The translations under genes were made by a program, and so were the position numbers. The notes beneath the pieces are model-generated. The model saw only the letters and a program-made list of their open reading frames with translations, was not told where the DNA came from and made no database searches. This document shows positions 4,323-37,672 of a stretch of 53,082 bases of DNA, one piece after another (positions within the stretch are counted from its first letter, which is position 1; each line of letters starts with the position of its first letter). Source of the stretch: Candidatus Pacearchaeota archaeon (GTDB lineage Archaea > Nanobdellota > Nanobdellia > Pacearchaeales > GW2011-AR1); NCBI GenBank assembly GCA_016866975.1, contig VGKP01000003.1:1-53082 (forward strand), read 5' to 3'.

Positions 4323-4493
4323 AAACCGAGGTTTGTTGCAGTCGCTCGTTTTTGGAGATGCTCGGGAACCACCACACCTTGAAAGGTGTGGTTTTCATCG
4401 GTTCCCGACATAAGCACGATACACCACCTCGGATTGAAAACCGAGGTTTGTTGCAGTCGCTCTTGTCATCAAGGATGTAAATCCTTGACATAA
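4292..4493 (+). mobile_element. Hairpin element copy 1 (composite: A + B + partial A + minimal 26-bp hairpin)
   Basis: ATCA-caaaaacgatgcgccacctcgg...ggttcccGACATAA, then a second A arm and ATCAAGGATGTAAATCCTTGACATAA. Confidence 0.9.
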
Positions 4494-4499
4494 AATAAA

Positions 4500-5726
4500 T
4501 CAAACAACAACTTGAGCATCTCTATCAACATGTTTCCTCCAGCCTTGATTTGTTGGATCATATGAATTGATATAGCTTGAGATATAATTTGAAGGAATCA
4601 TCGCTTTGTGTCCTCTTCCTCTCTTGAAATTCACGTTTTTCCAGACATTGTTTCTGCTCTGGATTCTCGATAGTTCTTTAGCGCTCATGACAGAAATTCC
4701 AAGAACATATGCAATATCCTTGAAACTCAAGGAATTTTCTTTCCCTGCAAGCCTTAAAAGTGCTTCTTGCCTTCTTTCTTCCAAAGCCTGGCCGTTAAAA
4801 TTAAGCTTATTTCTGACTCTGTAAAGTTCTTCGCGTATTTTATACTGTTCAATATCATAATAGTCATAGAGAGATTGGAGCGAAACACATCCCTTGCCAT
4901 CGGCCTCAAAATCTCTTTGTGTTACGAGCCTCTTAATAGTGATCTCACCCATATTAAGGACGGAGACAAGTTCTTGATAAGGTATCCCTATTCTGCCCTT
5001 GGTATTCCAACTGACAAGTTGCTCTTCAAGCTTAAAAAGCTCATCCCAATCACGATGTTTAAGGCGGTTAAGTGCCTCTTGGGGCAGGATGTCGATGCGA
5101 TGCTCAAAGTGATAGGATGTAAACTGGCGTGGTTGTGATGCAGTGACAAGATTGATGAAAGAAGGATGAAATTTCTTAATATACCTATCGCTCCCATTGA
5201 GTTGGTAAAATAAAAAGGGATGTGGGAAGCAGTGATAAATGATCTCATCAGGATCCGAACATTTTAGAGCAGTATGCGTTGCGCTGATTGATGTGTGAAT
5301 ATGCGCTGCAAGATTGCGTGAAAGAGCACAGCTTTGGCGGCCCTTCATAGTAGCAGGAGAAAGGACATAGTACTGAGATGCATTTCCTTTGAGCTTAAAT
5401 CCTACAAACGTAGTGATGCACTTGCGCTCTAAAGTTGACATTATTTCAGCATCTTTTTGCATGCGCTCCCGAAGTAGCTCATGATCATCGAAGAGTTCAT
5501 GGAGCGCAGTTACAGATACTCGCGTATAGTGGTGCTCGTAAACACCTTCCCGCAACTTCTTAAAAGAATCTTTTATTTTTTTTCTAGCTCGCCTGATAGA
5601 AGTCTGTTCCTGGAACTTAAGAGAACGTAGTCGCTGTTGTAAACGCACATTCATGTCATTATACCCTACCATTAAAAAATTGACTATCGAAACTCTTATA
5701 AGCTTTTCGTACAGGCTCCACCGCAA
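4500..5726 (-). CDS. Hypothetical protein with C-terminal HTH-like segments (start uncertain, possibly 5656)
   Basis: 408 aa ORF containing IPYQELVSVLNMGEITIKRLV and LSFKDIAYVLGISVMSAKEL. Confidence 0.55.
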   Translation of the reverse strand: MRWSLYEKLIRVSIVNFLMVGYNDMNVRLQQRLRSLKFQEQTSIRRARKKIKDSFKKLREGVYEHHYTRVSVTALHELFDDHELLRERMQKDAEIMSTLERKCITTFVGFKLKGNASQYYVLSPATMKGRQSCALSRNLAAHIHTSISATHTALKCSDPDEIIYHCFPHPFLFYQLNGSDRYIKKFHPSFINLVTASQPRQFTSYHFEHRIDILPQEALNRLKHRDWDELFKLEEQLVSWNTKGRIGIPYQELVSVLNMGEITIKRLVTQRDFEADGKGCVSLQSLYDYYDIEQYKIREELYRVRNKLNFNGQALEERRQEALLRLAGKENSLSFKDIAYVLGISVMSAKELSRIQSRNNVWKNVNFKRGRGHKAMIPSNYISSYINSYDPTNQGWRKHVDRDAQVVV

Positions 5727-5768
5727 TTCTTTTAATCTACAATTCCCTCACTACAAAAAGAGACTATC

Positions 5769-6188
5769 ATGAAATACGAATTTGCCGAAGATATCCAACA
5801 GCGCATGTCGGAGATAGTGCAGACCTTGGGTATGCATCATATTGACTTACAGAGGGTAAAATGCTATCGTAGTAGTGGAAGCAGCACAAAAAGAACCATC
5901 GCGCGCTGCCATACCGTGGGTAAGCTTATGCAGAAAGCTATGGGTATGCCTGCATATTATGCAATAGAATTTCTGGAAAGATTTGAGAGAATGCAGAAAG
6001 ATGAGCAGGACAAGGTAATAATCCATGAGCTGATGCACATCCCTAAGACATTCGGCGGGGGTTTTAGACAGCACGATTTTGTATGCGACCAGAATGTAGA
6101 GATAATGCATGAAAAGTTTCTTGGTATGAAAAGATCCGGCACTGAACATAAGGTTCCTGAGAAAAAGCTCTTCCCATTTTGGAAATGA
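5769..6188 (+). CDS. Putative HExxH metallopeptidase
   Basis: VIIHELMHIP zinc-binding motif and RTIARCH; a small archaeal metallopeptidase-like family. Confidence 0.75.
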   Translation: MKYEFAEDIQQRMSEIVQTLGMHHIDLQRVKCYRSSGSSTKRTIARCHTVGKLMQKAMGMPAYYAIEFLERFERMQKDEQDKVIIHELMHIPKTFGGGFRQHDFVCDQNVEIMHEKFLGMKRSGTEHKVPEKKLFPFWK

Positions 6189-6538
6189 TTATCGACATAA
6201 CTATCTCAAAGAATAATAGAAAAATAAGCTTCCCCGTACATAGAGTGTCTATTCTGGGAAAGATAACCGGTCTTATGTTCCGCACCAGGAATACACGAAA
6301 CCTTCTCTTCGAATTTACCAGGCCAGTAAAATTATCAATACATTCCTGGTTCGTCTTTTTCCCTTTCCTTATAGTCTGGACAGACAAGAAAAACAATGTC
6401 ATCGGACAGAAAGTTGTCTTGCCGTTCACGACGGCAATTGCTCCACTAAGACCATTTTCAAAGGCCATAGAAGTGCCATTTTCACGACGAAATAAGGACA
6501 TCCTTGATTTCTTCGTCGACACAAAAAGATTTAAATAG
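6185..6538 (+). CDS. DUF192 family protein
   Basis: GLMFR, IHSWFVFFPFLIVWTD and IEVP motifs. Confidence 0.75.
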   Translation: MIIDITISKNNRKISFPVHRVSILGKITGLMFRTRNTRNLLFEFTRPVKLSIHSWFVFFPFLIVWTDKKNNVIGQKVVLPFTTAIAPLRPFSKAIEVPFSRRNKDILDFFVDTKRFK

Positions 6539-6580
6539 AGAGAGTATTTAATCTAGATATCAGCCAAAAGGAGGTTTAAA

Positions 6581-6703
6581 ATGGGATCAGTTATTGCAAA
6601 AAATATTGTAAAGCGAAAACCAGGTTATCTCTACTATGTCGACAGTAAAGGAAATGTCTGCGAAGCAAAGATGGCTCGTGGTGGACGAAAGAAGAAGAAA
6701 TAA
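6581..6703 (+). CDS. Small basic protein, 40 aa (MGSVIAKNIVKRKPGYLYYVDSKGNVCEAKMARGGRKKKK), not in ORF track
   Basis: Hand translation. AGGAGGT Shine-Dalgarno at about 6569-6575 and TTTAAATA at 6530. Confidence 0.75.
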   Translation: MGSVIAKNIVKRKPGYLYYVDSKGNVCEAKMARGGRKKKK

Positions 6704-6872
6704 ATAAAATATTCACAGTCAATCGACAGCCGTGTCGAATTTATTTTTTCTTCAATTATTGATTTCACTTTTTTATATTTCCTATGTGCTGCAGTATGCC
6801 TGCAGCTATCTTTATGGAGCTAGCAGTTTTTGTAATCTATAGTCTTTTAAACTCATTTAAATTACAAGCTCC

Positions 6873-7841
6873 ATGATCCTTGGAGTTGAATGCACGGCGC
6901 ATACATTCGGCGTATCTTTATGTAATAAAAAGAAAATTCTTTCTAACATCAAGGATATGTACCGTCCCGAGAGAGGAGGGATTATTCCTGCAGAGAGCGC
7001 GAAACATCACGAAAATATCTCGCAATCTATCTTTGAACAGGCACTTGACAAAGCATGCATCCGAGAGCAAAAAATTGACGCCATAGCAATCTCAAATGCA
7101 CCAGGTCTAGCCCCTTGCCTTCTTGCAGGGATGAGATTCGCAAAGCAAAAAGCATTGAAGTTAGGCAAGCCAATCATTCCAGTCAATCACTGTATAGCTC
7201 ACCTTGAGATCGGCCAGCATGAGGGTGCAAAGGATCCTGTCCTTCTTTATACTTCAGGTGCTAACACTCAGATAATTGCATTCTCTGAAGGAAAATATCG
7301 TATATTTGGAGAGACACTAGACATAGGAATTGGAAATTTCCTGGATAAGTTTGCCAGATTCACAGGTATACCTTTCCCTGGCGGTCCAGAGATAGAGCGG
7401 CTTGCAAAAAATGGGAAATACATAGAACTCCCTTATGTGATAAAGGGCATGGATGTATCTTTCTCAGGGCTCTACACCAAACTCACACAACTATACAATA
7501 ATAAAGTCCTTATAGAAGATCTTTGTTTTTCTATACAGGAAACTGCTTTTGCAATATTGGTAGAAGCCGCAGAGCGCGCCCTTGCACACACTGGAAAAAA
7601 AGAGCTTGTCCTTGGTGGAGGCGTTGCATGCAACTCACGTTTGCAAGAGATGTGCAGGATAATGTGTCAGGAAAGAGGCGCACACTTCTTCTGTCCGCCC
7701 AAAGAGTTTCTTGTAGACAACGCTGGAATGATTGCATATACAGGAGAACTTATGTTCAATAAAGGCATTAAGATGGATCCTTCCAAAATAGATATCAGTC
7801 CAAGGGAAAGGACTGATGAAGTAGTTGTTACCTGGCGATAG
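6873..7841 (+). CDS. kae1: tRNA t6A37 threonylcarbamoyltransferase Kae1 (KEOPS)
   Basis: TAHT, HCIAHLEIG, SGANTQ, GETLDIGIGN and DNAGMIA motifs. Confidence 0.95.
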   Translation: MILGVECTAHTFGVSLCNKKKILSNIKDMYRPERGGIIPAESAKHHENISQSIFEQALDKACIREQKIDAIAISNAPGLAPCLLAGMRFAKQKALKLGKPIIPVNHCIAHLEIGQHEGAKDPVLLYTSGANTQIIAFSEGKYRIFGETLDIGIGNFLDKFARFTGIPFPGGPEIERLAKNGKYIELPYVIKGMDVSFSGLYTKLTQLYNNKVLIEDLCFSIQETAFAILVEAAERALAHTGKKELVLGGGVACNSRLQEMCRIMCQERGAHFFCPPKEFLVDNAGMIAYTGELMFNKGIKMDPSKIDISPRERTDEVVVTWR

Positions 7842-7921
7842 CATTTACCGTCGATAAACACCACCTATATACAGAAAGGTTTTTAAAGCAGGCTGCGTTT
7901 TGGGGATTTAGAGCTTCAAAG

Positions 7922-9823
7922 ATGAGTGACAAAGAATCAAAATCTAAAGATTATAAGGCTGAAAACATAAGAGTTCTTGAGGGCCTTGAAGGAGTCAGGC
8001 ACAGGCCTGCAATGTATATAGGTAGCACAAGTAAGACAGGTCTCCACCATCTGGTCTGGGAACTCATGGATAACTCGATTGATGAAGCTATGGGAGGTCA
8101 TTGTGATTTAATAGAGGCCACAATAAACAAGGACGGAAGCATAACTGTTAAAGACAATGGAAGGGGTATCCCTGTAGACATCCATCCCGTATACAAAAGA
8201 CCTGCCCTTGAAATTGCTGTGACAAAACTCCACGCAGGAGGGAAGTTTGATAAGTCAAATTACAAATTCTCTGGAGGCCTTCACGGAGTAGGCATTTCGG
8301 TAGTAGCAGCGCTTTCCAAGTTGATGAAAGTTATTGTAAAAAAAGGAGGCAAAATATACCAGCAGGAATACAAAATAGGAAAGCCGATTTATGACATGAA
8401 GGCTCTTGGCGATTGCCCTAAGGATGAGACTGGAACAAGTGTCACATTCCTTCCTGACGATACAATATTTTCCACCGTCAAATTTGATTTCTCTACTCTT
8501 TCCTCAAGATTTAGAGAGATGGCATTCCTCAATAAAGGCCTTAAGATAATGCTCGAAGACAAAGATACAGAGAAAAAAGAAGTCTTCCATTATGAGGGTG
8601 GACTTATAGAATTTGTCAAGGAACTCAATAAGTCAAAAGATGAGTTGCACAAGCCAATATATTTCTTCAAAGAACAAGACAAGATAGAGATTGAATGTGC
8701 AGTCCAATACAACTCGAGCTATTATGAGAACGTCCTGAGTTTTGTAAATACAATAAACACAACTGAAGGAGGCACACATGTTGTAGGATTCAAGACGGCC
8801 CTTACAAGGACTATCAATGACTATGCCAACAAAAACAAGATGAATAAGGGCGAGAACCTTACTGGAGACGACGTCCGAGAAGGTTTGACTGCAGTTGTGT
8901 CTGTCAAGATAGGTGAACCTCAATTCGAAGGACAGACAAAAACAAAACTTGGCAACGCAGAAGTGAAAGGCATCGTAGATGCTGCTGCAACGACAGCTTT
9001 AACAGTATTCTTCGAAGAAAATCCCACAACTGCAAGAAGGATTGTAGACAAAGCAATGGAAGCACAGAAGGCGAGAAATGCTGCAAAGAAAGCAAAAGAA
9101 CTGGTAAGAAGAAAGAATGCATTCAGTGTTGGCGGCCTTCCAGGTAAGCTTGCTGACTGTTCAAGCAACAAGATGGAAGAGAGCGAAATATACATTGTTG
9201 AGGGAGATTCTGCAGGAGGCAGTGCAAAACAGGCACGTAATAAAGAAAATCAGGCTATCCTTCCGATAAAAGGTAAGATTCTTAACGTGGAGAAAGCAAA
9301 TCCCATAAAAGTATTTTCTCATGAGGAGATAGCAAATCTGATTACAGCCATAGGTTGTGGAGTAGGTGACCAATTTGACATAGGGAAACTCCGATATGCA
9401 AAGACGATTATTATGACAGATGCAGACGTTGATGGAGCACATATTAGGACTTTACTGCTCACTTTCTTTTTCCGTTTCGTTCCAAAGCTTATTGAACAAG
9501 GCAAAATTTACATCGCTGTACCTCCGCTCTATCGCATAAGGAAACGCGGAGACCATTACGTCTATTCAGACGATGAACTTAAAAAGATAACTTCAAAATT
9601 CAATGGCAACATTGACGTTCAGAGATTCAAAGGTCTAGGAGAGATGAATCCGGAGCAGCTCTGGGAGACAACAATGGATCCAAAGACGCGTTTGCTCAAG
9701 AAAGTAACTATTGATGATGCTGCCCAAGCAGATGTAACATTTTCAAAACTAATGGGTGATGATGTAGAACCCAGAAAACAGTTCATTGCAGAACATGCGG
9801 CGGAGGCGCAGATTGACATCTGA
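7922..9823 (+). CDS. gyrB: DNA gyrase subunit B
   Basis: [42 protein letters not shown] and RFKGLGEM motifs. Confidence 0.97.
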
Positions 9824-12372
9824 TGACTGACAAACAAAACAACAGTGAGGACAAGCTAGAAGAAGAACTCAAGAGGGAAGAACAAGAGAGAAGAGAGAAA
9901 GGCCAAATAGGCAATGAAAAAGGAGTCATTGCTGCAGAAATTGTAGAGGAGATGGAACAAGCATTCATAGATTATGCCATGTCAGTCATCGTTGACCGTG
10001 CACTCCCAAGCGTCGAAGATGGCCTTAAGCCAGTGCATAGAAGGATTCTGTATGCCATGCACAGCATCGGTCTTGATTCCAGCAAACCCACAAAAAAATC
10101 AGCAACAGTAGTGGGAGAAGTCATAGGAAAGTATCATCCTCACGGAGACGTCCCAGTTTATGAGGCAATGGTGCGTATGGCGCAGGACTTCTCTCTCCGT
10201 TATCCTCTTGTCCATGGCCAAGGTAACTTCGGCAGCATGGATGGAGATAAGCAGGCAGCGATGCGTTATACTGAAGCAAAGCTCAGCAAGATATCCACAG
10301 AATTGCTTGCTGACATAGAAAAAGAAACAGTAGCCATGCATCCAAACTTCGACAATTCTCTCAAAGAGCCAGATACCCTTCCTGCAAAACTTCCAAATCT
10401 TCTTCTTAATGGCTCCACAGGTATTGCAGTGGGCATGGCGACAAACATACCTCCTCACAATCTCACAGAAATCTCAGATGCAATAATCGAGTGCATCAAT
10501 AAGCCAGACGTGACTACTGAAGATCTCGCAGAGATTGTCAAAGGCCCAGACTTCCCCACAGGAGGCATCGTCATAGGTTCTGGCATCAAGGACATGTACA
10601 AGACAGGAAAAGGAAAACTCATCCTTCGTGCAAAACATACTTTGGAAGAATCCAAAGGAAAGCAACGCATTATCATAAATGAGATACCTTATATGGTCAA
10701 TAAGGCAGAACTTGTGAAAGAAATAGCTCGCCTTGCTACAGAGAAAAAACTACCTGATATCTCTGATCTCAGGGACGAGTCTGCAAAAGGAAAAGTCAGG
10801 ATAGTCATTGAGCTCAAGAAAGACGTAGATCCCAAGTTTACATTGAACAAGCTATATACTCTTACTAATATCCAGACTACATTTGATGCTAATATGCTTG
10901 CCCTTGTAGGAAAGCAGCCACGCGTATTAAATCTCAAAGATATTCTCACAGAATATATCAAATACCGCCAGGGAGTCGTAAGAAAAAGAAGCAACTTTGA
11001 GCTTAAGAAAGCAGAAGACCGCCTTGAGATCGTCCTTGGTCTTCTTATTGCACTCAAGGACATAGATAAGATAGTTGAATACATAAAGAAAGCAGATAAC
11101 GCTCAGTCAGCCCATGAAGGATTAATGAAAAAATTCGGGCTCTCAGACAGGCAAGCAAAAGCAGTTCTAGAGATACGCCTTCAACAACTTACTCACCTTG
11201 AGGCAACTAAGTTGAAAGATGAGGAGAAATCTTTGAAAGAGATTATAAATGAGTTAAAGCACATCCTTGGAGATGAGAAAGAGATCCTTAAAGTCATAAA
11301 GAAAGAAGTGCAGGAATTGAAGACAAAGTATGGTGACGATAGAAGAACGAGAGTCATAAGAAAAGTTGATGAGATAACTGAACAGGATCTCGTTGAAAAG
11401 AAAGATGTAGTGGTCATGATAAGCGAAGCAGGATATATCAAGAGAGTAGATGTTAAGGCATACAGGGAGCAGAAGCGAGGAGGAGCAGGAGTATCTGGCG
11501 CAGAACTTAAAGAAGAAGACTTCATAAGGAAGATGATTACCTGTAGCACCCATGACTACCTGTTGTTCTTCACGACGAACGGCCGTATCTACTGGCTCAA
11601 AGCAAATGATGTGCCTGCCACGGAAAGAGCAGGAAAAGGCAAGGCAATTGTAAATGTCCTCAATCTACGCGATGAGAAAATAGCTAATGTCCTTGCTATA
11701 AAAGACTTCAATGCAGGGTATTTAATTTTTGCCACGAAGCTCGGCATGGTGAAGAAATTGCCTCTCAAGGATGTCTCCAAACCAAGAAGTACAGGAGTCC
11801 GCATAATGAATCTACCAACAGACAATTCGGATGTCATAATAAATGTAAGAAGAGTAACAGATAAGCAAGAAGTCCTCCTCATTACTAAAAAAGGCCAAGC
11901 CATCCGCTTTGACAGCGATGAAGTTAGACCTATGGGACGTTCAAGCTACGGAGTCAAAGGCGCAGAGCTTGAGAAGAATGATGAAGTCGTATCCCTCGAA
12001 GCGCTCCCCCTAGATGGCAAAACCACCATTCTCACAGTCACTGTCAAAGGCTTTGGCAAGCGCACTGACTTAGAAGAATACCGCAAGACAGCAAGAGGAG
12101 CAAAAGGAGTCATTAACCTCAACACGAGTGACAAGACAGGCGATGTTATAGGTTCTCTTTCAGTTGACGATAAAAACTCTATCATTGCAACCACAAAACA
12201 AGGTATGGTAATCCGTGTCTCCATGCGCGACCTACGCGTCATGGGCCGCGCGACGCAAGGTGTCCATGTCGTCCGTCTTAAAGACAATGATAAAGTCGCA
12301 GATATCGTTAAAGTCCCTATTGCCGAAGGCCTTCCACCTGCAGAGCAACAGACACTAGAAGATATTGAATAA
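9823..12372 (+). CDS. gyrA: DNA gyrase subunit A
   Basis: [23 protein letters not shown] active Tyr, GyrA-box QKRGGAG and six beta-pinwheel repeats. Confidence 0.97.
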
Positions 12373-12471
12373 AGAAATCAAAGACGCGATTCGCCATCAC
12401 GTAGAATCCTATCAAACAATTCTTCAAGTACTTAACGCTCTCAATTCCACCAATCCTCTACCTAAGTAAAC

Positions 12472-12564
12472 ATGCCATCAAGAATCGAAGATTCTTGAGG
12501 TTTGGATGCTCAAGGAACAACTCCAGCTTAAAAGCTGGAGTTTTAGTCAAGTTCTTTGACATAA
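12472..12564 (+). mobile_element. Hairpin element copy 2 (short hairpin + module C)
   Basis: atgccATCAAGAATCgaaGATTCTTGAggtttggatgctcaaggaac...gttctttGACATAA, nearly identical to 37580-37672. Confidence 0.88.
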
Positions 12565-12709
12565 AGAAAGATACATTAATTTGGCAAATCCATTCTTTTC
12601 TTCATAGCATGAGATTACTTCATATCCTTGTCCCCAAAGTCCAAACATCGTGCTCACCGTAAATTCATCATGATCTAATCGCGCTATCAACGTAGACATT
12701 TCCATTATT

Positions 12710-13024: not shown

Positions 13025-13043
13025 CCCTCCAATCCTATCACAA

Positions 13044-24421: not shown

Positions 24422-24428
24422 AAATATT

Positions 24429-25817: not shown

Positions 25818-25888
25818 GCAGCTTTAGTTCATCGGTAGAATGCGACCTTCCCAAGGTCGAGAGACGGGTTCAATTCCCGTAAGCTGCA
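25818..25888 (+). tRNA. tRNA-Gly(CCC)
   Basis: GCAGCTT/AAGCTGC acceptor, CGACC-TT-CCC-AA-GGTCG anticodon arm, ACGGG-TTCAATT-CCCGT T-arm, A73 (archaeal type). Confidence 0.93.
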
Positions 25889-26073
25889 TTGCTTACGGGA
25901 AGAATTCGCTGCAATTTTTATATGATTGCAGCTGCCGCGGACTTTGTCTGCGAGCACCGTAAGCTGCATTGCTTACGGGAAGAATTCGCTGCAATTATTA
26001 TATGATTGCAGCTGCCGCGGACTTTGTCTGCGAGCACCGTAAGCTGCATTGCTTACGGGAAGAATTCGCTGCA
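25877..26073 (+). repeat. 80-bp tandem repeat (about 2.5 copies) beginning with the last 12 nt of tRNA-Gly
   Basis: CCGTAAGCTGCA at 25877, 25957 and 26037. Units 1 and 2 differ at one base. Confidence 0.95.
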
Positions 26074-29706: not shown

Positions 29707-29733
29707 CACTTTAAATCTATGAAAAACAGGTAT

Positions 29734-29855
29734 ATCACAAAAACGATGCGCCACCTCGGCTTAAAAGCCGAGGTTTGTTGCAGGCGCTCGTTTTTGGAGA
29801 TGCTCGGGAACCACCACACCTTGAAAGGTGTGGTTTTCATCGGTTCCCGACATAA
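29734..29855 (+). mobile_element. Hairpin element copy 3 (A + B)
   Basis: ATCA...ccacctcggcttaaaagccgagg...cgggaaccaccacaccttgaaaggtgtgg...GACATAA. Confidence 0.93.
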
Positions 29856-29863
29856 ATATTACG

Positions 29864-30955
29864 TCAGAGGATCTCTGCGCATCCAAGGACCTTGTTCTTT
29901 ATAGAAAATACAATAATCTGTCCTGAGGCTATTGAAGAGATAGGCTTATCAGATTCAAAGTACATCTTTCCGCCTACTCTAACTACCTTGCCCTCATGAT
30001 ATTCCCCCAGATGTCTTATTCTGGCACAGACTTTGCCATTAAGAGAAGAGCCAGGGCCAATCATATGTACCTTGCCGATATTTATCCTTTTTCTGCACAA
30101 TCTAATGTCTCCCTCAGGCGCGACTTTAATTATATTTTTCTTGACGTCTTTACTTACCACATAAAACCTCTTCTGTGCCAGTCCATAAGGTTTGACTAAT
30201 TTAATTCCTGAACTCTCTCCTGCCTTCTGTCCTTCAGTATAGAAAAATGCTCCATTATGTTCTCCAATTTCAGTCCCATCAGGCATCACAACTCTTCCTT
30301 TCTTCTCTCTTATCTTCGTTCTAAGAAAATTGCGCATATTGTCCTGTCCAACAAAACATATCCCTACTGTGCCATGTTTGTCCCAGTTTGGCAACCCTTC
30401 TTTTCTTGCAATATCTCTTACATCCTTTTTCTTGTAATGCCCAAGAGGAAAAATCGTCCTAGAAAGATGATTTTGCGAAAGGTCCGAAAGGAAATATGAC
30501 TGATCCTTATCCTTATCTGCTCCTGAAAATAGTTCCCACACTTTTCCTCTTCTCCTTACTCGCGCATAATGGCCAGTAGAAATATATTCAGCTTCAAGTT
30601 TCCTGGCAGCAGTGAGCAATAAAGGGAACTTGATGACTTTGTTGCATGCAATATCTGGATTTGGGGTCTTCCCTCTTTTATATCCTTCAAACATGGGTCC
30701 TAGAACTTTATTCTTGTAGTCCTTTTCATAGTCAAGGACATGTAAGGGAATCTCTAATATCATTGCAACTTTCCTGGCCATCTTAAGATCTTCAAGATAC
30801 TTGCATTCTCCAGTAGACTTATTCTTTGTATCAGAATACAACTTAAAAAATACTCCGACAACTTCATAGCCTTTTTTCTTTAATAAAAGCGCCGCTACGC
30901 TTGAATCAACTCCTCCAGACAGTCCAATTACAACTTTCTTTCTCTGGTTTTTCAT
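29864..30955 (-). CDS. mnmA: tRNA 2-thiouridine(34) synthase MnmA (bacterial type)
   Basis: SGGVDSS, PNPDIACN, TGHYAR, KDQSYFL and GICFVG motifs. Confidence 0.92.
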   Translation of the reverse strand: MKNQRKKVVIGLSGGVDSSVAALLLKKKGYEVVGVFFKLYSDTKNKSTGECKYLEDLKMARKVAMILEIPLHVLDYEKDYKNKVLGPMFEGYKRGKTPNPDIACNKVIKFPLLLTAARKLEAEYISTGHYARVRRRGKVWELFSGADKDKDQSYFLSDLSQNHLSRTIFPLGHYKKKDVRDIARKEGLPNWDKHGTVGICFVGQDNMRNFLRTKIREKKGRVVMPDGTEIGEHNGAFFYTEGQKAGESSGIKLVKPYGLAQKRFYVVSKDVKKNIIKVAPEGDIRLCRKRINIGKVHMIGPGSSLNGKVCARIRHLGEYHEGKVVRVGGKMYFESDKPISSIASGQIIVFSIKNKVLGCAEIL

Positions 30956-31083
30956 TTTATTCTGAAAAATCTTTCGAGTAATACAGAATCACTATCGCAT
31001 TTGTCCATAATAAACAGACAGAAAAAATGTTTATATGCCTTTCCTTTACATAAATTTTTAAGCATAATAGTACAAGTTTTATC

Positions 31084-31293
31084 ATGGCAGAAGAAGTAGA
31101 GACAGGTGGCCTGATGAGATTCCGTTATTCCGGAGAACAGGCCAAACTAAGTGAGAAGGGAAAAAAAGATATCGAAGATGCGTACAAGCAAGCAGATGAG
31201 AGGAAAAGAAAAGAGAGACGTAAACGTCAAGCCCTCTGGATTCTAGCTATTTTAATAATAATTAGTACTCTTGCTTATTTTCTCTGGAAATAA
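31084..31293 (+). CDS. Small tail-anchored membrane protein
   Basis: Charged N-terminal region with a single C-terminal TM helix. Confidence 0.6.
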   Translation: MAEEVETGGLMRFRYSGEQAKLSEKGKKDIEDAYKQADERKRKERRKRQALWILAILIIISTLAYFLWK

Positions 31294-31295
31294 AA

Positions 31296-31574
31296 CGTCC
31301 CCTGGAGGACTCGAACCTCCGACCCTGCGGTTACAACCTTCTCTAATTACTTAGAGGGTAGGACTATACCATCACCATAGCAAAATGCCTCAGGTGGCGA
31401 GTGTCTAGTCTCTGCACCTTCCCTTTCGGGCTTGGCTCAGGATTGCCCTTTACCAATAAAGGGTTTCCCTGAATTTACTCGCTTTTTCATTCCACAGTTT
31501 CCTATGAAAGCTGCTAACTCGGTTTTTTCAACCTGTCTTACAGCCGCATGCTCTACCGGCTGAGCTAAGGGGAC
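31296..31574 (-). tRNA. tRNA-Asn(GTT) interrupted at 35/36 (exon 1 31574-31540, exon 2 31333-31296)
   Basis: Splicing gives a canonical 73-nt cloverleaf: GTCCCCT/AGGGGAC, TGCGG-CT-GTT-AA-CCGCA, GGAGG-TTCGAGT-CCTCC, G73. Confidence 0.9.
31334..31539 (-). ncRNA. Group I intron (IC3-like), 206 nt, no ORF
   Basis: P3 GCGAGU/ACUCGC, P4 UUCAGG/CCUGAG, P7 GACUA/UAGUC, IGS GUUAGCAGC forming P1 (U35.G wobble) and P10, terminal omega-G. Confidence 0.92.
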
Positions 31575-31629
31575 ATAGAAACATCAAAGAAAAACGTTAT
31601 TTAAAGCTTTAGATGAAGCACAAAATAAG

Positions 31630-32121
31630 TCAATTATCTAGCCCTCTCCTTGCAGTGTTCATTCTCTCTAAAAACCTATAGACATTGGCCTGTTTTGACC
31701 CTCTAATTAGATTAGTGATTGCAGTTGTTGCTTCTTCAATAGATTCCGCAGAACCCAACAATCCAACCGCGTCATCTCGGATTATAATCTCACACCCAGA
31801 AATGTTTTCAAGAGCGTGTTTTGTCTTGCCTTCCTTTCCTATCAATCTACCTCGAACCACAGACATATCTTTCCTTCTTGTGAAATTCTTCAAGGGAAGT
31901 TTCCTAAAAATATACCCTTCATCGAGGAGCATAAGTGCCTTCTTTGCAGAATAACCAAATTCCATGGCTTCTAGAACAAGTCTTGCTTCATACTCATCAA
32001 GTGAGTCTCCTTCGACAGTCACCTTCTTTCCTTCTACCTTTATCGTGACATTCATCCTTTTTTCTAATTGCACTTTCTCTTTCCTTAACTCTGCAGTCTT
32101 GTTGAAATATAACGTTTCCAT
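31630..32121 (-). CDS. KH-domain ribosome biogenesis protein Dim2/Pno1
   Basis: RGRLIGKEGKTKHALENISGCEI KH motif and GSKQANVYRFLE. Confidence 0.88.
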   Translation of the reverse strand: METLYFNKTAELRKEKVQLEKRMNVTIKVEGKKVTVEGDSLDEYEARLVLEAMEFGYSAKKALMLLDEGYIFRKLPLKNFTRRKDMSVVRGRLIGKEGKTKHALENISGCEIIIRDDAVGLLGSAESIEEATTAITNLIRGSKQANVYRFLERMNTARRGLDN

Positions 32122-32163
32122 AATATCTATGATGTAAATAAGTTTTTTAAAGTTCCGGTCAGG

Positions 32164-32463
32164 TTAAAGAAGCTTCAAAGCAAATGGCACTCCCTGTATT
32201 GTAATCACGCTATCCTCGTCAATAACTCCAACCTCAATCGCGCATTGGATTGCCTCTAGCCCGACAATATTGAATGTTGCATCTTCTCTCAACTGGCTTG
32301 CAAGAACGAAAAGAGCCTTCTCTCTATCTACTTCTTCTCCTTTGAAGAATCCTTCTTTTATCTCGACCTGTCTTTTCCCTTCCTCAAATCTCTTTCCTAA
32401 TAACTCGGAATCTACCAACGCTACTACTGATCTATATGAACTGTGTATTTTCAGAAACATCAT
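32164..32463 (-). CDS. DUF424 family protein
   Basis: VVALVDSELLGKRFEEG...FFKGE...ATFNIVG pattern. Confidence 0.85.
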   Translation of the reverse strand: MMFLKIHSSYRSVVALVDSELLGKRFEEGKRQVEIKEGFFKGEEVDREKALFVLASQLREDATFNIVGLEAIQCAIEVGVIDEDSVITIQGVPFALKLL

Positions 32464-32870
32464 ATCTTTTGTTTGATAGAGGACTTTGCCCCGCATGCAA
32501 GGCAATGTTTAGACTTTATTCCTTTATCAGATATTATCTCCGTGTCAGGTTTTCCGCACTCGTTGCAGAGCACGAACTCTTTTGAATATATCTGAATCTT
32601 TTCAATTACCTTCTGAGAATTGAGCTTTGTATTGAGGATTAATCTCTCACCATCAAGTTTTCCAGGCGTTGCAAGTGATCTCTGCAAAAACTTAGCAAGA
32701 TGTTCTACAGGTCTCCTTAAATAATTTGCAATAGTAGTTATATTTGTTATTATTGTACTTTTTCCAGATATAATGCCTGCTACTTTGGGTATTTCAAACC
32801 TTTCACCTGTGCCACCAACTATTTTTATCTTACCATATGCCTTTTCCAATAACACTTCATAACTTTCCAT
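32460..32870 (-). CDS. eif2b: Translation initiation factor aIF-2 beta
   Basis: YEVLLEKAY, ERFEIP, LRRPVEHL, CNECGKPDT and CLACGA motifs. Confidence 0.95.
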   Translation of the reverse strand: MESYEVLLEKAYGKIKIVGGTGERFEIPKVAGIISGKSTIITNITTIANYLRRPVEHLAKFLQRSLATPGKLDGERLILNTKLNSQKVIEKIQIYSKEFVLCNECGKPDTEIISDKGIKSKHCLACGAKSSIKQKI

Positions 32871-32922
32871 ACATCAAAGGAGGACGACAAGGGTTTATAA
32901 ATCTGCGCACCTTTTTTCTGAC

Positions 32923-33486
32923 ATGAATATTAAAAACCTTGTGCTGGGCATTGGCATTTTCATAGTCTACCTTCTAGCAGTAGGATATGGAATAGCGACA
33001 TTTTATCCCTCTCCAGATTATCAGGATTTCTGCAAGAATGATGGTAGATTCCCATACTATGCAAAGCCAATCGATCCTTCTCAGAACTGCACTTTTTCCC
33101 GCACAGTACAGGAACAGACTGAACAATGTTATGCAAATCAAGGCATCCCTATATATGAGTACAATGATGCAGGATGCACAATAGCTGTCAAGACCTGCGA
33201 CTATTGCAACAAGGAATTTAATAATGCCCAAAAATCTCATCAGAAGATAGTCTTTATTATAGCCCTTATTGTTGGGATTATCACTATCTTTGTAGGATAT
33301 GGCATTCTCTCTGTTGAGCCAGTAGGTTCCGCACTCATGGCATCAGGGATAGGTGCAATATTCTACGGCTCAGCAAGGAACTGGGCAAACCTAACAGATA
33401 TCTGGAGATTCTTACTATTGATTGCAGCCCTTATCCTCTTAATCTGGATAACTTTAAACCTGAATAAGTCTAAAAGTAAAAGATGA
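32923..33486 (+). CDS. Membrane protein with Cys-containing extracellular loop
   Basis: Four TM segments and a Cys-rich loop. TATA TTTATAAA starts 29 nt upstream. Confidence 0.65.
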   Translation: MNIKNLVLGIGIFIVYLLAVGYGIATFYPSPDYQDFCKNDGRFPYYAKPIDPSQNCTFSRTVQEQTEQCYANQGIPIYEYNDAGCTIAVKTCDYCNKEFNNAQKSHQKIVFIIALIVGIITIFVGYGILSVEPVGSALMASGIGAIFYGSARNWANLTDIWRFLLLIAALILLIWITLNLNKSKSKR

Positions 33487-33558
33487 ATATAATCGCTTTT
33501 ACAATTCACAATCCAAAGTACGCCTATTTGAAACATCCTGAAGAGGATTTCTTTGCAT

Positions 33559-33680
33559 ATCAAAAAAACGATGCGCCACTGCGGCTTAAAAGCCGAGGTT
33601 TGTTGCAGGCGCTCGTTTTTGGAGATGCTCGGGAACCACCACACCTTGAAAGGTGTGGTTTTCATCGGTTCCCGACATAA
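33559..33680 (+). mobile_element. Hairpin element copy 4 (chimeric A'/A + B)
   Basis: The left arm CTGCGGC (A') is paired with the right arm GCCGAGG (A). Confidence 0.92.
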
Positions 33681-33725
33681 AATTGCAGGTAGTGAAGGAA
33701 CATTATTAGCTCTGAAATATTAAAT

Positions 33726-34379
33726 TTATGAGGGTTCAACTTCTATCTTCTTTCCATTAACAGTAAATAATTTAGAATCAACTCCCTCAGTAAGATGCAC
33801 AATTCCTTTTTCAACCTCGTAGCTTTCAATCACTCTTGGGAGAAAGCGATATTTAGGAAATCTAATCCAATGATCCCACTCTGAAAGCCTTGTCTTTCCT
33901 ACATGATGATATCTCTTAAACTGATACATCCAATTCCAAGCCACAATATAAAGAGTCCTTCTATTAACATATTTTTCCTTAATAGTTCCAATTCTACCAA
34001 TATCTCTAGTTAAATCAAAAAAACGATGCGCCACTGCGGCTTAAAAGCCGCAGTTTGATGCAGGCGCTCGTTTTTTGGATGCTCAAGGAACAACTCCAGC
34101 TTAAAAGCTGGAGTTTTAGTCAAGTTCCTTGACATAATAAAATCCAAGTCCCCAGCAAGTAGTTTTATTCCTCTCCCCCCATTTCATTTCATGATCAAGT
34201 TTTCGCCATGATTTATGAATATATTCTTCATCAGACTGCTTTGCAAAAGCAACTTCTAAATCAACTTTCTCGTCTAGTAAATCAATACCAGGGGCAGGAT
34301 TGTTTTTCATATTTAGAACTTTCGCAGCCCAGAACTCATTCAGATGAAAGAAAGTCCCGTTAAAATGCCTGTGATCCAT
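33726..34379 (-). pseudogene. One hypothetical gene (about 178 aa) split by an antisense hairpin-element insertion
   Basis: ORFs 34116-34379 and 33726-34034 share a frame (offset 345 nt). Removing the element joins ...GLGFYY to (D)LTRDIG... Confidence 0.7.
34014..34137 (+). mobile_element. Hairpin element copy 5 (A' + C), intragenic
   Basis: ATCA-aaaaaacgatgcgccactgcggcttaaaagccgcag...caaggaac...gttcctt-GACATAA. Confidence 0.93.
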
Positions 34380-34991
34380 CTAACCCAGCCATCTCAATTT
34401 TCCAGGCCTAGGCTCATAGACAAGCCCATCTTCAAGAAGTTTCTTTATTTCTTCATTTATTGTATGCGGCGATTCTTTTGATTGCAATATTATCTTCTCA
34501 ATATCTACTCCACCATCTTTCTCCGCATTCTTCACCATCTCCAATATCCCGTCTTTTAATGCCAATAATTTAGTAGTGTCCTGAGACTTTGGCTTGTTCG
34601 ACTCTATCTCCAATTTCCTTACCAAGAGAAAAGAAGGATCTTTCTTCTTCAGGATATCAGGAGTTAGGTAAATCTCATTGTTCCAAGACCTTAGGAGACC
34701 AATTATCTGCACCGTGTCTCCTTGATTTAATCCTTCAAACTTTTCGATATCATCTCCAAATGTCTTTGCCTTAATTTGCCCAGTAGCATCATCAAGTGTC
34801 AAAGAACCAAATTTCTTCTCCCCATCTTGTATATACTTATCGACTACATTTGCAATTAAATTGACTCTGACTACATGCTTGTCTCCAATCTCAAGGAACT
34901 TTATCCTCTCCCCTTCAAGTATAGGTTTTCCAGTCAATAGAGAACTGATATGATATTTATAAGCTACATTTCTCTTGAATTGCTGTTCCAT
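34380..34991 (-). CDS. RPA32-like OB-fold ssDNA-binding protein with C-terminal wHTH
   Basis: VRVNLIANVV...LTLDDATGQIKAK and LLEDGLVYEPRPG motifs. Confidence 0.8.
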   Translation of the reverse strand: MEQQFKRNVAYKYHISSLLTGKPILEGERIKFLEIGDKHVVRVNLIANVVDKYIQDGEKKFGSLTLDDATGQIKAKTFGDDIEKFEGLNQGDTVQIIGLLRSWNNEIYLTPDILKKKDPSFLLVRKLEIESNKPKSQDTTKLLALKDGILEMVKNAEKDGGVDIEKIILQSKESPHTINEEIKKLLEDGLVYEPRPGKLRWLG

Positions 34992-35040
34992 AGTACTTTT
35001 TGACAACTTGCCCTTTTAAGTTTTTATGTGAAATAAAACA

Positions 35041-35373
35041 TTAAAAAATATCATCTTTTCTCGCGTCAGTAGTTATTTCTTCACCATTTATTATATCTCT
35101 TATGGCAATATCGCACATATTTTTCAAATCCTGGACAGTATTTGGATTGTTAGAATGGTTAACATATCTCTCAGGCTCTGAATAGAGATGGATAACTCCT
35201 TTTTGAGAATGAGTAAACTTCTTCTCTTCTTCAGATAAATTATGATATTCTTCCTCAGTTAATGAAGTGAGATGATATCTGATAACTATCTTTCCTTTCC
35301 TGAAGTCCCTATTGGCAAATGCCCCTTTATCAAACTGATCTATATTTGATTTTTTAATGATTACATCTTTCAT
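35041..35373 (-). CDS. SET-domain protein
   Basis: KGAFANRDFRKG, RYVNHSNNPN and RDIINGEEITTD motifs. The usual terminal Tyr is replaced by Ala. Confidence 0.8.
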   Translation of the reverse strand: MKDVIIKKSNIDQFDKGAFANRDFRKGKIVIRYHLTSLTEEEYHNLSEEEKKFTHSQKGVIHLYSEPERYVNHSNNPNTVQDLKNMCDIAIRDIINGEEITTDARKDDIF

Positions 35374-35374
35374 A

Positions 35375-37402
35375 TTAGATTTTCTGGATATACCCTTTCT
35401 TAGGCTTAAACAAGTCACCGGATTTCACAAGCTGTTCAAGAGCCTCTTCTATCTCTACTTTGCTTACTTTGCCTTCCAAGACCTTTTCCACTTCCTCTAC
35501 GGGAATAAGTTTCCCAAGGCGAGATTCAAGTTGAGCAAGAGCTTCTTTGACAGTGATTATCTTCCCTCTTTTAGAGGAGCTTATCCCCGTAGTTACTCTA
35601 TCAATATCAAAAGTTTTAGTCTCTTCATCATACCCTACTTGAGTGAGAGACATCTTAAGCAAGTCTATAGCCTTCTTAGCATCTTCTCTCTTAACTTCAT
35701 TGCTCAATCTCAATTTTGCATGAGCCTCAGAAAGACGGATGATGCCTTCAAGTTGACGGGCAGTGACGGGTATAGGTTTTACTGCTGAATCTACATTGAC
35801 AGATTGGTTCCTCATACGCACGTAAAAAGATTTTATTTCATCTACAGCCTCATCACTTAATTTTGGCTTATATTTCTGTTTTGCATAAGAAATAAATTTC
35901 CTCAAGAGTTTTGGATCGATAATTTCTTCTCGTTCTACATCCTGTTGATGCTCTTGCAAGACATGGGATGCAATAGCTTCATCTTGCGCTTTGTTCGGAA
36001 TATCTTTTATGACAAAGATGACGTCAAATCTGCTTAAGAGAGCAGGAGATATGTCTATTTGTTGAGGGATAGGCGTATATGGATCAAATCTTCCTAATTT
36101 TGGGTTTCCTGCTGCAAGTACAGTTGTCTCAGATCGTAAAGTTGCATGGATATTTGCTTTTGAAATTGTGACTGTCTGCTGTTCCATAGCCTCATGCATC
36201 GCGCTTCTATCCTGCTCATTCATCTTTTCTATCTCGTCAATGCAAACCATTCCTTTGTTCGCCAATACCATTGCTCCAGCCTCCAATGACCACCCTCTAA
36301 GAAATTCATCTTTTACTACTGCGGCAGTAAGTCCAGCACTTGTTGCGGCTTTTCCAGATACGTACCTTCCTTTTGGGGCAATTGATGATGTAAACTTCAG
36401 TAAGACAGACTTTGCCACTCCCGGGTCTCCAACAAGCAGTAAGTGCATATCTCCTCTCGTAAAACCCCCGTCAGATTTTTTCTTCTTAACTCCTCCAAAT
36501 AATTGTAGTAACACTGCTTCTTTGATGCGATCAAAGACCGGTGTGCCATATATGCTAGGAGCAATACTTCGAGTCAGACGCTGAAAGATTTTTGGATCGC
36601 TTCCCAATTCAAGGATAAGCTGGATTTCATCATCACTTACATTAAGGTCTTCAAAAGACTCTTCTAAAGGTATTACATTATTTGCTTCGATAGCGATATC
36701 ATACCTTGTAGAGATTGCGCCTGTCTGTAATGGCACAGGAACTTCCTTAAGCACTCCAAAAACTCTAACTTTGCTTCCAGGAGTAGTTCTTTCTTCCATT
36801 CTGGGATCTACAAGATCTTCTTTAAGAAAAACATTTATCCTTCTGGGCTGCTCGCCTCCTTCAAGAGAATCAGGAGATTCCTCTATGACTAATCTCTGTG
36901 TATCTACCATCTCTTTAGAAATAAGCTTGAAACTGCTTTTCCATCCGCAAGTACACCTGCTAGGTTCTCTGAATTTCTTCTCTATTTGAAGAACAGACAG
37001 GGTGGCCCCGCAATTAGGGCATTCAAACTTTGCGTTCACTACCTGGGGCCTTACATCTGAAGCTTGCCTGACAATCCCTTCTATCCAGATCATCAGATCG
37101 AGATTCTTTGCTCTTATTTCCCTTATCTTTACGAATGTAGTCTTGGGTAAGTCGGAAAATCTGACTCTAGGATTCTTCAACAAGCCAGATTCGTCCAAAG
37201 CATCTTCAAGTACCGCTATTGTTTGTTCAGGAGTCTCTATGACGCTGTCAGAAAGCACCGGAGAGAACTCTTCAAGTTGATGGAAGCTAAGATAAATCAC
37301 TTTCTGTTCAGAACGTATAAATTGCCCAAAGTCCTTTTTATGTGCATCAAAAAAGTTTTTAGCTTCCAGTAACAACTCTTCCTGCTTTCTCTTTTTATCC
37401 AT
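35375..37402 (-). CDS. mcm: Replicative helicase MCM
   Basis: CPNC...C-C zinc motif, GDPGVAKS Walker A, IDEIEKM, SRFD, ARQLEG and a C-terminal wHTH. Confidence 0.97.
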   Translation of the reverse strand: MDKKRKQEELLLEAKNFFDAHKKDFGQFIRSEQKVIYLSFHQLEEFSPVLSDSVIETPEQTIAVLEDALDESGLLKNPRVRFSDLPKTTFVKIREIRAKNLDLMIWIEGIVRQASDVRPQVVNAKFECPNCGATLSVLQIEKKFREPSRCTCGWKSSFKLISKEMVDTQRLVIEESPDSLEGGEQPRRINVFLKEDLVDPRMEERTTPGSKVRVFGVLKEVPVPLQTGAISTRYDIAIEANNVIPLEESFEDLNVSDDEIQLILELGSDPKIFQRLTRSIAPSIYGTPVFDRIKEAVLLQLFGGVKKKKSDGGFTRGDMHLLLVGDPGVAKSVLLKFTSSIAPKGRYVSGKAATSAGLTAAVVKDEFLRGWSLEAGAMVLANKGMVCIDEIEKMNEQDRSAMHEAMEQQTVTISKANIHATLRSETTVLAAGNPKLGRFDPYTPIPQQIDISPALLSRFDVIFVIKDIPNKAQDEAIASHVLQEHQQDVEREEIIDPKLLRKFISYAKQKYKPKLSDEAVDEIKSFYVRMRNQSVNVDSAVKPIPVTARQLEGIIRLSEAHAKLRLSNEVKREDAKKAIDLLKMSLTQVGYDEETKTFDIDRVTTGISSSKRGKIITVKEALAQLESRLGKLIPVEEVEKVLEGKVSKVEIEEALEQLVKSGDLFKPKKGYIQKI

Positions 37403-37447
37403 TATTCTTAACTGGCAAGTGCCTTTATATCATTTATTGTGTTAAGA

Positions 37448-37672
37448 ATCTAAAAAACGATGCGCCACTGCGGCTTAAACCTCGAGGATGTGAATCCTCG
37501 ATGGCAGTCAGGAATCTTAGATTCCTGATGAGCCGCAGTTTGATGCAGGCGCTCATTTCACCAAGAACATTGTTCTTGGATGCCATCAAGAATCGAAGAT
37601 TCTTGAGGTTTGGAAGCTCAAGGAACAACTCCAGCTTAAAAGCTGGAGTTTTAATCAAGTTCCCTGACATCA
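37448..37672 (+). mobile_element. Hairpin element copy 6 (A' with nested double hairpin + second double hairpin + C)
   Basis: A 51-nt insert (37480-37530) lies in the A' loop and a second insert lies between A' and C. The ends are degenerate (ATCT / GACATCA). Confidence 0.88.

Follow-up and report, generated by a model that had tools for sequence, protein, structure and literature searches.

The contig and its interspersed repeats

The stretch of DNA analysed here (the window) comprises 53,082 nucleotides, the whole of contig VGKP01000003.1 (C3) of a Candidatus Pacearchaeota archaeon assembly (GCA_016866975.1, here G000), which holds 805,708 bp in 31 contigs at about 39% G+C. Coordinates carrying a prefix such as C2 or C13 refer to other contigs of this assembly, and those without a prefix to the window. 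The subject of this analysis is a group of short hairpins that lie within larger interspersed repeats of this genome, and that turn out to be the halves of double-hairpin cassettes of about 50 nt. Public metagenome-assembled genomes (MAGs) in which these repeats occur bear the labels Woesearchaeota, Pacearchaeota, or Nanoarchaeota.

The repeat that hosts most of the features described below is about 125 nt long and is found at about 55-63 loci across the genome (12 in the window). The repeat is made up of two nested-hairpin modules, A (CGATGCGCC-ACTGCGGC-TTAAAA-GCCGCAGT-TTGATGCA-GGCGCTCG) and B (CTCAAGGAAC-AACTCCAGC-TTAAAA-GCTGGAGTT-TTAGTCAA-GTTCCTTGAC), and has the termini ATCA(A/C)AAAAACG at its 5' end and GACATAA at its 3' end. 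Two variants exist, distinguished by compensatory changes in the stems. Adjacent copies are co-oriented in 34/40 cases genome-wide (p = 8e-6) and in 12/12 in the window. For IS608 and ISDra2, co-orientation is expected from insertion into one replication strand, and the bias of the host repeat therefore counts in favor of a single-strand mechanism; the host element shows the strand-biased behavior of a single-strand transposon.

Short hairpins are the halves of double-hairpin cassettes

A palindrome scan, run without knowledge of the hairpins cited in an earlier, sequence-only reading of the window, recovered every one of them: those at 4469-4488 and 37482-37501 (8 bp stem, 4 nt loop), those at 12478-12498, 37586-37606, and 37508-37528 (9 bp stem, 3 nt loop), and that at 37561-37579 (8 bp stem, 3 nt loop). 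Short hairpins are more frequent in the genome than expected by chance. Perfect hairpins with a stem of at least 8 bp and a loop of 3-6 nt number 296, against 52-69 in block shuffles, while hairpins with a YCRRR foot number 82, against 8-19 in ten shuffles. They also form pairs of fixed spacing: 21 hairpin pairs less than 30 nt apart were found in G000, and the spacer between the two hairpins measured exactly 6 nt in 21/21. Over seven genomes of the genus, 76 such doublets were collected, of which 50 are distinct. The recurrent unit is therefore the doublet, a fixed cassette of about 50 nt, and the short hairpins are its halves. The sequence-only reading had described a second class of hairpins nested at exact positions in the main modules, which is borne out, but it had missed that they are halves of fixed doublets. 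The hairpins are not confined to a few loci: they occur genome-wide in G000 with its 21 doublets, and were also found in seven of the genomes of this genus and in GTDB MAGs of DPANN archaea.

In the window, two cassettes lie in a composite host element at 37448-37672 on the plus strand, which is made up of module A with a loop cassette inside it, a linker cassette, and module B. The loop cassette (51 nt, 37480-37530, plus strand) reads CC-TCGAGGAT(gtga)ATCCTCGA-TGGCAG-TCAGGAATC(tta)GATTCCTGA-TG and lies between TTAAA and A of the module A loop; the pair is flanked by TTAAA and AGCC. The linker cassette (50 nt, 37559-37608) reads CC-TCAAGAATC(ttc)GATTCTTGA-TGGCAT-CCAAGAAC(aat)GTTCTTGG-TG on the minus strand, and sits in AAA^AAA (the T6 linker; ^ marks the insertion point throughout). 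These two had been taken for different structures; they are the same kind of unit in reverse orientation. As single-stranded DNA, the composite has a folding energy of -59.2 kcal/mol (z = -10.3), and its sequence is 100% identical in a JGI contig of the same population. Other composites lie at C13:7454-7678, C2:40332-40670, and C24:4549-4659. An assembly artefact was ruled out, as the same structures are present on many contigs, in seven genomes, and on the independent JGI contig.

The cassette strand is predicted to fold as a nicked dumbbell

Two designs were found among the doublets: a main one of 50-51 nt, CC-H1-TGGCAK-H2-TG, and a second one of 48 nt, CG-H1-GCGCGC-H2-CG, where H1 and H2 are the two hairpins. 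The stem feet are conserved (TCRRG/CYYGA), while the top 3-4 bp vary yet covary. In doublets detected by feet and spacer only, stem positions 6-8 were Watson-Crick pairs in 195/198 cases, compared to 137 (maximum 153) when partners were shuffled. Both stems extend 2 bp past a 1-nt bulge, with the two bases outside each stem pairing with the spacer. Among the 50 distinct doublets, which were collected without using flanks or spacer sequence, these closing pairs were Watson-Crick in 193/200 cases, against a partner-shuffled mean of 119.5 and maximum of 137; on the same doublets, a register without the bulge fails. The closing dinucleotides covary as CC/GG, CA/TG, CG/CG, TC/GA, TT/AA, and CT/AG. 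When 35 distinct doublets, drawn from seven genomes of the genus, were aligned with MAFFT (A1), the picture was similar, with 97.0% paired cells versus 84.3% in shuffles and 27-48% with slid partners, changes on both sides in 17/21 pairs, and a covariation score of 0.471 versus 0.212 in shuffles, attained by 0/500 of these.

The general cassette can be written as 5'-N1N2-stem1-loop-stem1'-b-N2'N1', directly followed by M1M2-b-stem2-loop-stem2'-M2'M1'-3', the two halves typically being CC-H1-T-GG and CA-K-H2-TG. Spacer positions 2-5 (GGCA, CGCG, or GGTC), when reverse-complemented, give the 3'-terminal dinucleotide followed by the 5'-terminal one. Because these positions complement the 3' end and then the 5' end of the cassette, the 6-nt spacer is really part of the fold. 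Judged from these pairings, the folded strand would form a rod or dumbbell with two loops, two facing bulges, and a sole nick, located at the junction with the host DNA.

Loops were compared among the doublets of G000, G005, G013, and G016. On identical stems, with the cassettes in the same orientation, 6/24 loop pairs were exact reverse complements (GAA/TTC, GGA/TCC, TTTC/GAAA, TTA/TAA). Such loop inversion is the flip-flop behavior of palindromes at the DNA level.

Cassettes occupy exact sites in three unrelated hosts

Three comparisons between filled and empty sites define the boundaries. For the module A loop of variant 1, the filled copy at C13:7454-7564 and the empty copy at C3:34014-34073 share a prefix of 32 and a suffix of 28 nt, which add up to 60, the length of the empty copy. 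The filled copy is longer by exactly 51 nt, and at its junctions GGCTTAAA, CC...TG, and AGCC abut with no duplicated or common base. The empty reference element extends over 34014-34137 (plus strand), with its loop TTAAAA and linker TTTTTT unoccupied, and is otherwise 100% identical to the composite C13:7454-7678. For variant 2, the filled copy C24:4549-4659 and the empty module A at C3:40104-40163 (plus strand) likewise give 32 + 28 = 60 and an exact 51-nt block. In the A-B linker, a prefix of 20 and a suffix of 26 add up to the 46 nt of the empty linker, with an exact 50-nt block between GTTT and TTTGG; its reverse complement, CC-TCAAGAATC..-TGGCAT-CCAAGAAC..-TG, has the same design as the loop cassette. 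Target duplication and microhomology were both 0 in the three comparisons.

Three kinds of site were found: the loop of module A (TTAAA^A, in the target hairpin GGCTTAAAAGCC when empty), the A-B linker on the opposite strand (AAA^AAA), and the hairpin base of an unrelated 36-nt repeat (AAGA^ACC; GGGAGTTGACCCACAAGA^ACCGTAGGTTCTTAGGAA). Loop and linker cassettes have an A residue on each side. All three kinds of site place the cassette between A residues, in a segment left unpaired by folding of the host repeat.

The 36-nt repeat (unit GGGAGTTGACCCACAAGAACCGTAGGTTCTTAGGAA) forms tandem arrays at contig ends (C5:47602-47700 and C12:1-170, the repeat being recorded at C5:47602 and C12:26) and also occurs as single units, empty or filled, at C2:56463-56644, C4:13195-13285, C10:23345-23974, and elsewhere. 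An empty single copy lies at C2:56548. Copies at C2:56463 and C13:7800, the latter inside a tRNA-Ser intron, are filled with the 48-nt CG-H-GCGCGC-H-CG doublet, while those at C4:33898, C4:43347, C8:36428, and C2:56580 hold a CC..GA doublet. In another Pacearchaeota MAG, a homologous 36-nt host holds a CC..TG doublet. The cassettes are therefore exchangeable inserts in at least three unrelated host sequences.

Most potential sites are empty, as 8 module A loops are filled and 44 empty (8/52), and 5 linkers filled and 48 empty (5/53). The loop cassettes of variant-1 and variant-2 hosts are only 1 nt apart, while the stems of these hosts differ at several paired positions (CTGCGG versus CCTCGG). 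For near-identical cassettes to sit in diverged hosts, either a transfer must have been recent, or precise gains, losses, or transfers must have happened at least twice.

Truncated and decayed pieces in the window

The remaining hairpins of the window belong to incomplete pieces. A half linker cassette at 12472-12500 (minus strand; ATGCCA-TCAAGAATC(gaa)GATTCTTGA-GG) forms the 5' end of a truncated element that has module B only (12501-12564). A decayed loop cassette lies at 1277-1327 on the plus strand, inside what is left of a short element of the C15:4921 type (A-cassette-B3). It shows 44/51 identity over the cassette itself; the alignment reported earlier, 1279-1329 against 37482-37532, was reproduced at 46/51.

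A third piece, of 26 nt (4468-4493, plus strand), contains a single hairpin within the string ATCA...GACATAA, which is literally present, and it had been proposed as a minimal mobile unit carrying both ends of the family. It is preceded by a complete variant-2 element (A+B, 4292-4415) and a second module A (4409-4467), which together make up its host context at 4292-4467. A census of G000 refutes the proposal for this genome: in 805 kb the unit has one copy, which does not stand alone but lies within a tandem composite. Where an intact cassette has the closing pairs CA..C-TG, the piece has CA..C-AT, so that these pairs are lost, and its 'ATCA' is the end of a spacer (..CA) plus a hairpin foot (TCA..). 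The piece itself consists of a linker-cassette hairpin, TCAAGGAT gtaa ATCCTTGA, joined to CATAA, the 3' end of the family. This hairpin equals the first hairpin of the linker cassette at C2:94326, and the element at C2:94225-94372 contains TCCTTGAC twice, at the end of that linker hairpin and at the end of module B. Deleting from one TCCTTGAC copy to the other in a C2:94235-type element gives ...GCCATCAAGGATGTAAATCCTTGAC joined to AT.A, which is the sequence at 4468-4493. The 26-nt piece is thus probably the product of a repeat-mediated deletion, and we attach almost no credence to its being a minimal element.

Genomic contexts and distribution among relatives

None of the 21 doublets in G000 lies in real coding sequence; two apparent hits were to a spurious open reading frame (ORF) extending over a repeat and a tRNA gene. 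Among the places where doublets or lone TCAAG hairpins were found are tRNA introns (C16:9434-9559 and C13:7681-7902) and the positions directly upstream of tRNA-Leu and tRNA-Glu. Another case is a 503-nt insertion in the 23S rRNA gene (C6, about 5729-6231; L231 2729-3232), situated between GAACGU and ACAGUUUG. This insertion includes a GGTATAGTCC segment of group-I-like character, lacks a long ORF, and carries a TCAAG doublet 12 nt from its 3' end as well as an inner TCAAG hairpin. At the same 23S rRNA site, another Pacearchaeota MAG (L205) has an insertion that also ends in a doublet. All these contexts, tRNA introns, the 23S insertion, and sites upstream of tRNA genes, are places that tolerate extra DNA.

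The host family was detected in 12/16 other genomes of the genus that were searched; the nearest species to G000 show 86-90% protein identity. Composites with cassettes at the same two positions, and with compensatory stem changes, are present in G005, G016, and G008. One subfamily of linker cassettes (TCAAGAAT-N / YCAAGAAC-N) is common to G000, G009, and G013, and one of loop cassettes (H1 = TCGAGGAY) to G000 and G005. As these subfamilies are shared across species, the association between cassette and site must be old. Occupancy differs between species, with nearly all module A copies in G005 carrying a doublet, versus 8/52 in G000. The BIME-like mosaics noted in the sequence-only reading are real; their growth by repeated insertion is plausible but not established, given the site-specific subfamilies conserved across species.

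Individual loci were followed in the relatives as well. Upstream of MCM, no element is present in the closest species, G016 (87% protein identity). In G008 (C5, L048) this position is taken by a mosaic of a module A 5' half, six short hairpins, and a ..GCGACATTAA end, approximately 30 nt from the position of the G000 composite, and nothing was found upstream of MCM in the remaining genomes compared. Downstream of gyrA, synteny is not conserved among relatives. A pattern scan of GTDB, which shows the range of the doublets and not their frequency, gave 22 true hairpins among the 118 matches listed, 21 of them doublets and all in DPANN MAGs; the other matches were mostly due to chance. A metagenome scan anchored on MCM returned only relatives of at most 77% identity and no near-identical strains, with 2 TCAAG doublets in 251 kb.

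Many contig ends of G000 fall within the 125-nt family or within IS200 copies, and have 74-126 25-mers in common with other contig ends, so that the fragmentation of the assembly can be attributed to these repeats.

Comparison with known small mobile elements

The closest parallels were found in the haloarchaeon Haloquadratum walsbyi, which carries palindrome-associated transposable elements, or PATEs (Dyall-Smith et al. 2011, PMC3119063). These include 52-bp terminal-only forms made of two fused palindromes, as well as truncated versions that result from repeat-mediated deletions, and their palindromes match those of IS605-type transposons in the same genomes (PMC3119063). The cassettes are similar in that they are too short for a transposase gene (48-51 nt), have palindromes near both termini (the stems start 2 nt from the ends), and show no target duplication (0 overlap in the three filled/empty comparisons). 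Further likenesses are the form of about 50 bp consisting of just two palindromes, the truncation by repeat-mediated deletion, and the presence of IS200/IS605-type genes in the archaeon. They differ in that the TCRRG hairpins match neither resident IS200-type copy, with only host module A resembling the hairpin beside a transposase gene on contig C10, in that the ends, at 2 nt from the stems, form pairs with the center of the unit, and in that the host is a DPANN archaeon and not a haloarchaeon. Terminal inverted repeats are absent in PATEs; the left cassette end, CCTCRAG, does resemble the reverse complement of the right end, CAYCARG, but this follows from the TCRRG foot shared by both hairpins and does not constitute a separate inverted repeat. 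As one defining PATE feature, palindromes shared with a resident IS605-type element, fails, the cassettes are a variant of the PATE kind and not members of it.

H. walsbyi also contains SMR-A repeats, which measure roughly 110 bp, carry conspicuous terminal inverted repeats, and insert without duplication into PATE palindromes (PMC3119063). They strongly prefer the near-terminal palindromes of PATEs and IS605-type elements, and their mobilization has been called enigmatic (PMC3119063). Like these, the cassettes are small and non-coding, cause no duplication, and target other hairpin elements (8/52 module A loops, 5/53 linkers, and the hairpin of the 36-nt repeat). However, they measure 48-51 nt, consist of two abutting bulged hairpins, and enter unpaired loops or linkers rather than palindrome arms.

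Similarities to bacterial repeats are more distant. REP, BIME, and REPIN sequences are short extragenic palindromes with bulges or mismatches that form doublets and fixed-linker mosaics and are enriched at gene 3' ends; REP hairpins are thought to be handled as single strands by a Y1 HUH enzyme (RAYT). Bulged palindromes, doublets, mosaics, and fixed linkers are all found here. In contrast, G000 has no RAYT, the arms of a REPIN are inverted copies of a single REP and make up one long hairpin while a cassette holds two different palindromes folding separately, and nesting within loops is not a BIME feature. The resemblance is best regarded as a functional analogy only. ERIC/IRU copies can carry extra blocks at fixed internal sites, and pneumococcal BOX elements are modular (A-Bn-C), which recalls the internal blocks described here, but these repeats are bacterial, and their inserts or modules are not dumbbell doublets with a closing-pair rule. 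With IS200/IS605 elements (IS608, ISDra2), finally, the system shares oriented insertion by a short target word, the absence of duplication, hairpins on one strand, and a strand-biased host family. The cassette differs by having no transposase gene, another distance between cleavage site and hairpin, and only an A run as target, so that structural context must add specificity. A literature search on hairpin repeats in DPANN archaea found nothing relevant.

Interpretation and rival explanations

The reading we favor, at roughly even confidence, is that the doublet is a non-autonomous single-strand DNA cassette, similar to the terminal-only PATEs and SMR-A repeats of Haloquadratum, with its mobility and the responsible enzyme both inferred. 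Besides the co-orientation of host elements, this reading is favored by the absence of target duplication, by targets that the folded host leaves unpaired, by the loop inversions, by the empty site upstream of MCM in the closest species, G016, and by an apparently intact IS200/IS605 TnpA. The cassettes would be, or would once have been, mobile DNA handled as single strands, with an HUH/Y1-type enzyme acting in trans to excise or integrate the cassette at the nick. A circle junction would then read ...CCTGATG joined to CCTCGAGG.... After insertion, a cassette would travel along with its host element, and deletions between the many short direct repeats would yield remnants such as 4468-4493 and the half cassette at 12472-12500.

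A candidate enzyme is encoded at C10:122-589. This apparently intact IS200/IS605 TnpA of 155 aa has the HLH motif and the Tyr, scores 77.8 bits against the IS200/IS605 transposase model NF033573 (cut-off 55), and is the sole complete Y1 protein in the genome; against the RAYT model it reaches 31.2 bits (cut-off 80). Co-occurrence of C10-type Y1 transposases with the repeats across the genus was considered and found unsupported. The first 127 nt of C10 (C10:1-720 region) are joined by the ends of two different contigs, C2_R and C21_L (reversed), and both of these ends have a module-A-like hairpin (CGCCACTCCAGCCTAAAGGCTGGTAG) approximately 20 nt upstream, which in C21 continues into the family 5' end ATCAAAAAAACGATG. 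This hairpin may link the host family to the C10 transposase.

Several observations weigh against this mobile-cassette reading. The end hairpins of the IS200-type copies (CCCCACGG..CCGTGGGG and CCCCACGGtcttgCCGTGGGG at C6/C12, and GAGCGCG.. at C10) are unlike the TCRRG hairpins, and the C10-type TnpA was not found in the cassette-rich assemblies G005, G008, and G016, which are incomplete MAGs. IS608 is cleaved about 19 and 10 nt from its hairpins, whereas the cassettes end 2 nt from theirs. Inner loops of module B are never filled (0/55), although variant-1 copies share the loop TTAAAA, which implies that the target is more than an unpaired A run, or that insertion is rare. No cassette was found in unique DNA in G000, and no chromosomal locus was found filled in one strain and empty in another, the other assemblies of the locus being 100% identical. 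Since the host contexts number only three, and every one of them has a conserved subfamily to itself, a few ancient events followed by co-propagation could suffice.

The main rival builds on these points. It holds that doublets are old, fixed, optional modules without mobility of their own, spread by copying of whole elements and then shuffled by homologous exchange, gene conversion, or rare precise loss. Loop and linker sites that each have their own subfamily, conserved across species, fit this view, as do the lack of solo cassettes in unique DNA and the nearly complete filling of module A in G005 versus 8/52 in G000, which is what different master copies would be expected to produce. It does not readily explain the exact filled/empty boundaries, which offer no common bases to guide recombination or slippage, nor the presence of near-identical cassettes in diverged host variants, nor the recurrence of one unit design and one boundary rule (an A, then C..G, then an A) in three unrelated hosts and in both orientations. 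We therefore consider it improbable, though it deserves to be taken seriously. The doublets might otherwise work as RNA, either as a two-hairpin motif recognized by a dimeric RNA-binding protein or through a part in processing or stabilizing RNA. Such a role would explain the strong covariation as well as the occurrence in introns, leaders, and 3' regions; copies lie in the tRNA introns at C16:9434-9559 and C13:7681-7902, in the 503-nt 23S insertion, and beside tRNA genes, while host elements are enriched between convergent genes (16/49, versus 71/420 background gaps). Yet doublets occur in both orientations within one element, host elements show no orientation bias to flanking genes (10 (+,+) versus 15 (-,-)), and loops invert to their reverse complement. 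Moreover, no Rfam family matches a cassette: at gathering score, Rfam 15 matched only tRNAs, a group I intron, and large-subunit rRNA. Comparison by eye revealed no likeness to box C/D, K-turn, or bulge-helix-bulge motifs. An RNA role thus appears quite improbable. Least credible of these alternatives, and in our view very improbable, is that the palindromes are duplex binding sites of a dimeric protein (nucleoid, regulator, or restriction-modification-type) with half-sites TCAAG...CTTGA. The conserved TCRRG/CYYGA foot and fixed 6-nt spacing would suit such a protein, but it would need neither the complementarity of the freely varying positions between the half-sites (195/198 at stem positions 6-8) nor the pairing of two bases outside each stem across a bulge. 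In addition, the sites are located in other repeats and introns, and not in promoters.

Individual motif classes were rejected by inspection. Box C/D or K-turn motifs were discarded as the UGAUGG present lacks the final GA. The archaeal bulge-helix-bulge motif has two 3-nt bulges, a 4-bp helix, and cleavage in the bulges; the central helix of the cassette also has 4 bp (2+2), but each of its bulges has a single nt, and the boundary of the cassette falls in the strand that faces them. Hairpin terminators were likewise rejected, because archaeal termination needs no hairpins and the elements show no orientation bias to genes.

Returning to mobile cassettes, a bolder and rather doubtful version is that the nicked dumbbell of about 50 nt is by itself a complete transposition substrate, which would place it among the smallest mobile DNA units. 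It would leave and enter DNA as a fully paired circle of single-stranded DNA in which TG meets CC over the central GGCA, and the enzyme would read its shape (two bulged hairpins with dyad symmetry) and insert it into A runs exposed by palindrome extrusion. If true, this would also explain the "enigmatic" repeats of the SMR-A type in haloarchaea.

If the cassettes are mobile, the minimal substrate for single-strand DNA transposition would be two bulged hairpins and a four-base center, which bears on the open question of how transposase-free repeats that target palindromic elements move in haloarchaea. If they are only fixed modules, the present results are an anatomical refinement of an already noted repeat family. 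The present analysis adds to the description of that family by unifying loop and linker cassettes, by pointing to a third host, by stating a closing-pair rule (nicked dumbbell) together with its statistics, and by tracing the 26-nt piece to a probable deletion. In this DPANN genus, whose genomes are very small, a large part of the structure of intergenic regions, introns, and repeats is due to the cassettes, and they hinder assembly, as many contigs of this MAG end inside the repeats.

Other observations

The window also contains a group I intron at 31340-31612 on the minus strand (Rfam RF00028, 81.5 bits; gathering score 50). In addition, the gene for tRNA-Gly(CCC) at 25818-25888 runs directly into 2.5 tandem units of 80 nt (the whole spanning 25818-26073), each of which starts with CCGTAAGCTGCA, the last 12 nt of the tRNA. 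A like design is present at C9, about 7960-8250, where 3 units with an 89-nt period regenerate the tRNA 3' end each time. Common to the units of both loci, in opposite orientation, is TGCTCGCAGA..CCGCGGCA, and it looks as if a tiny element had integrated repeatedly at the 3' end of a tRNA.

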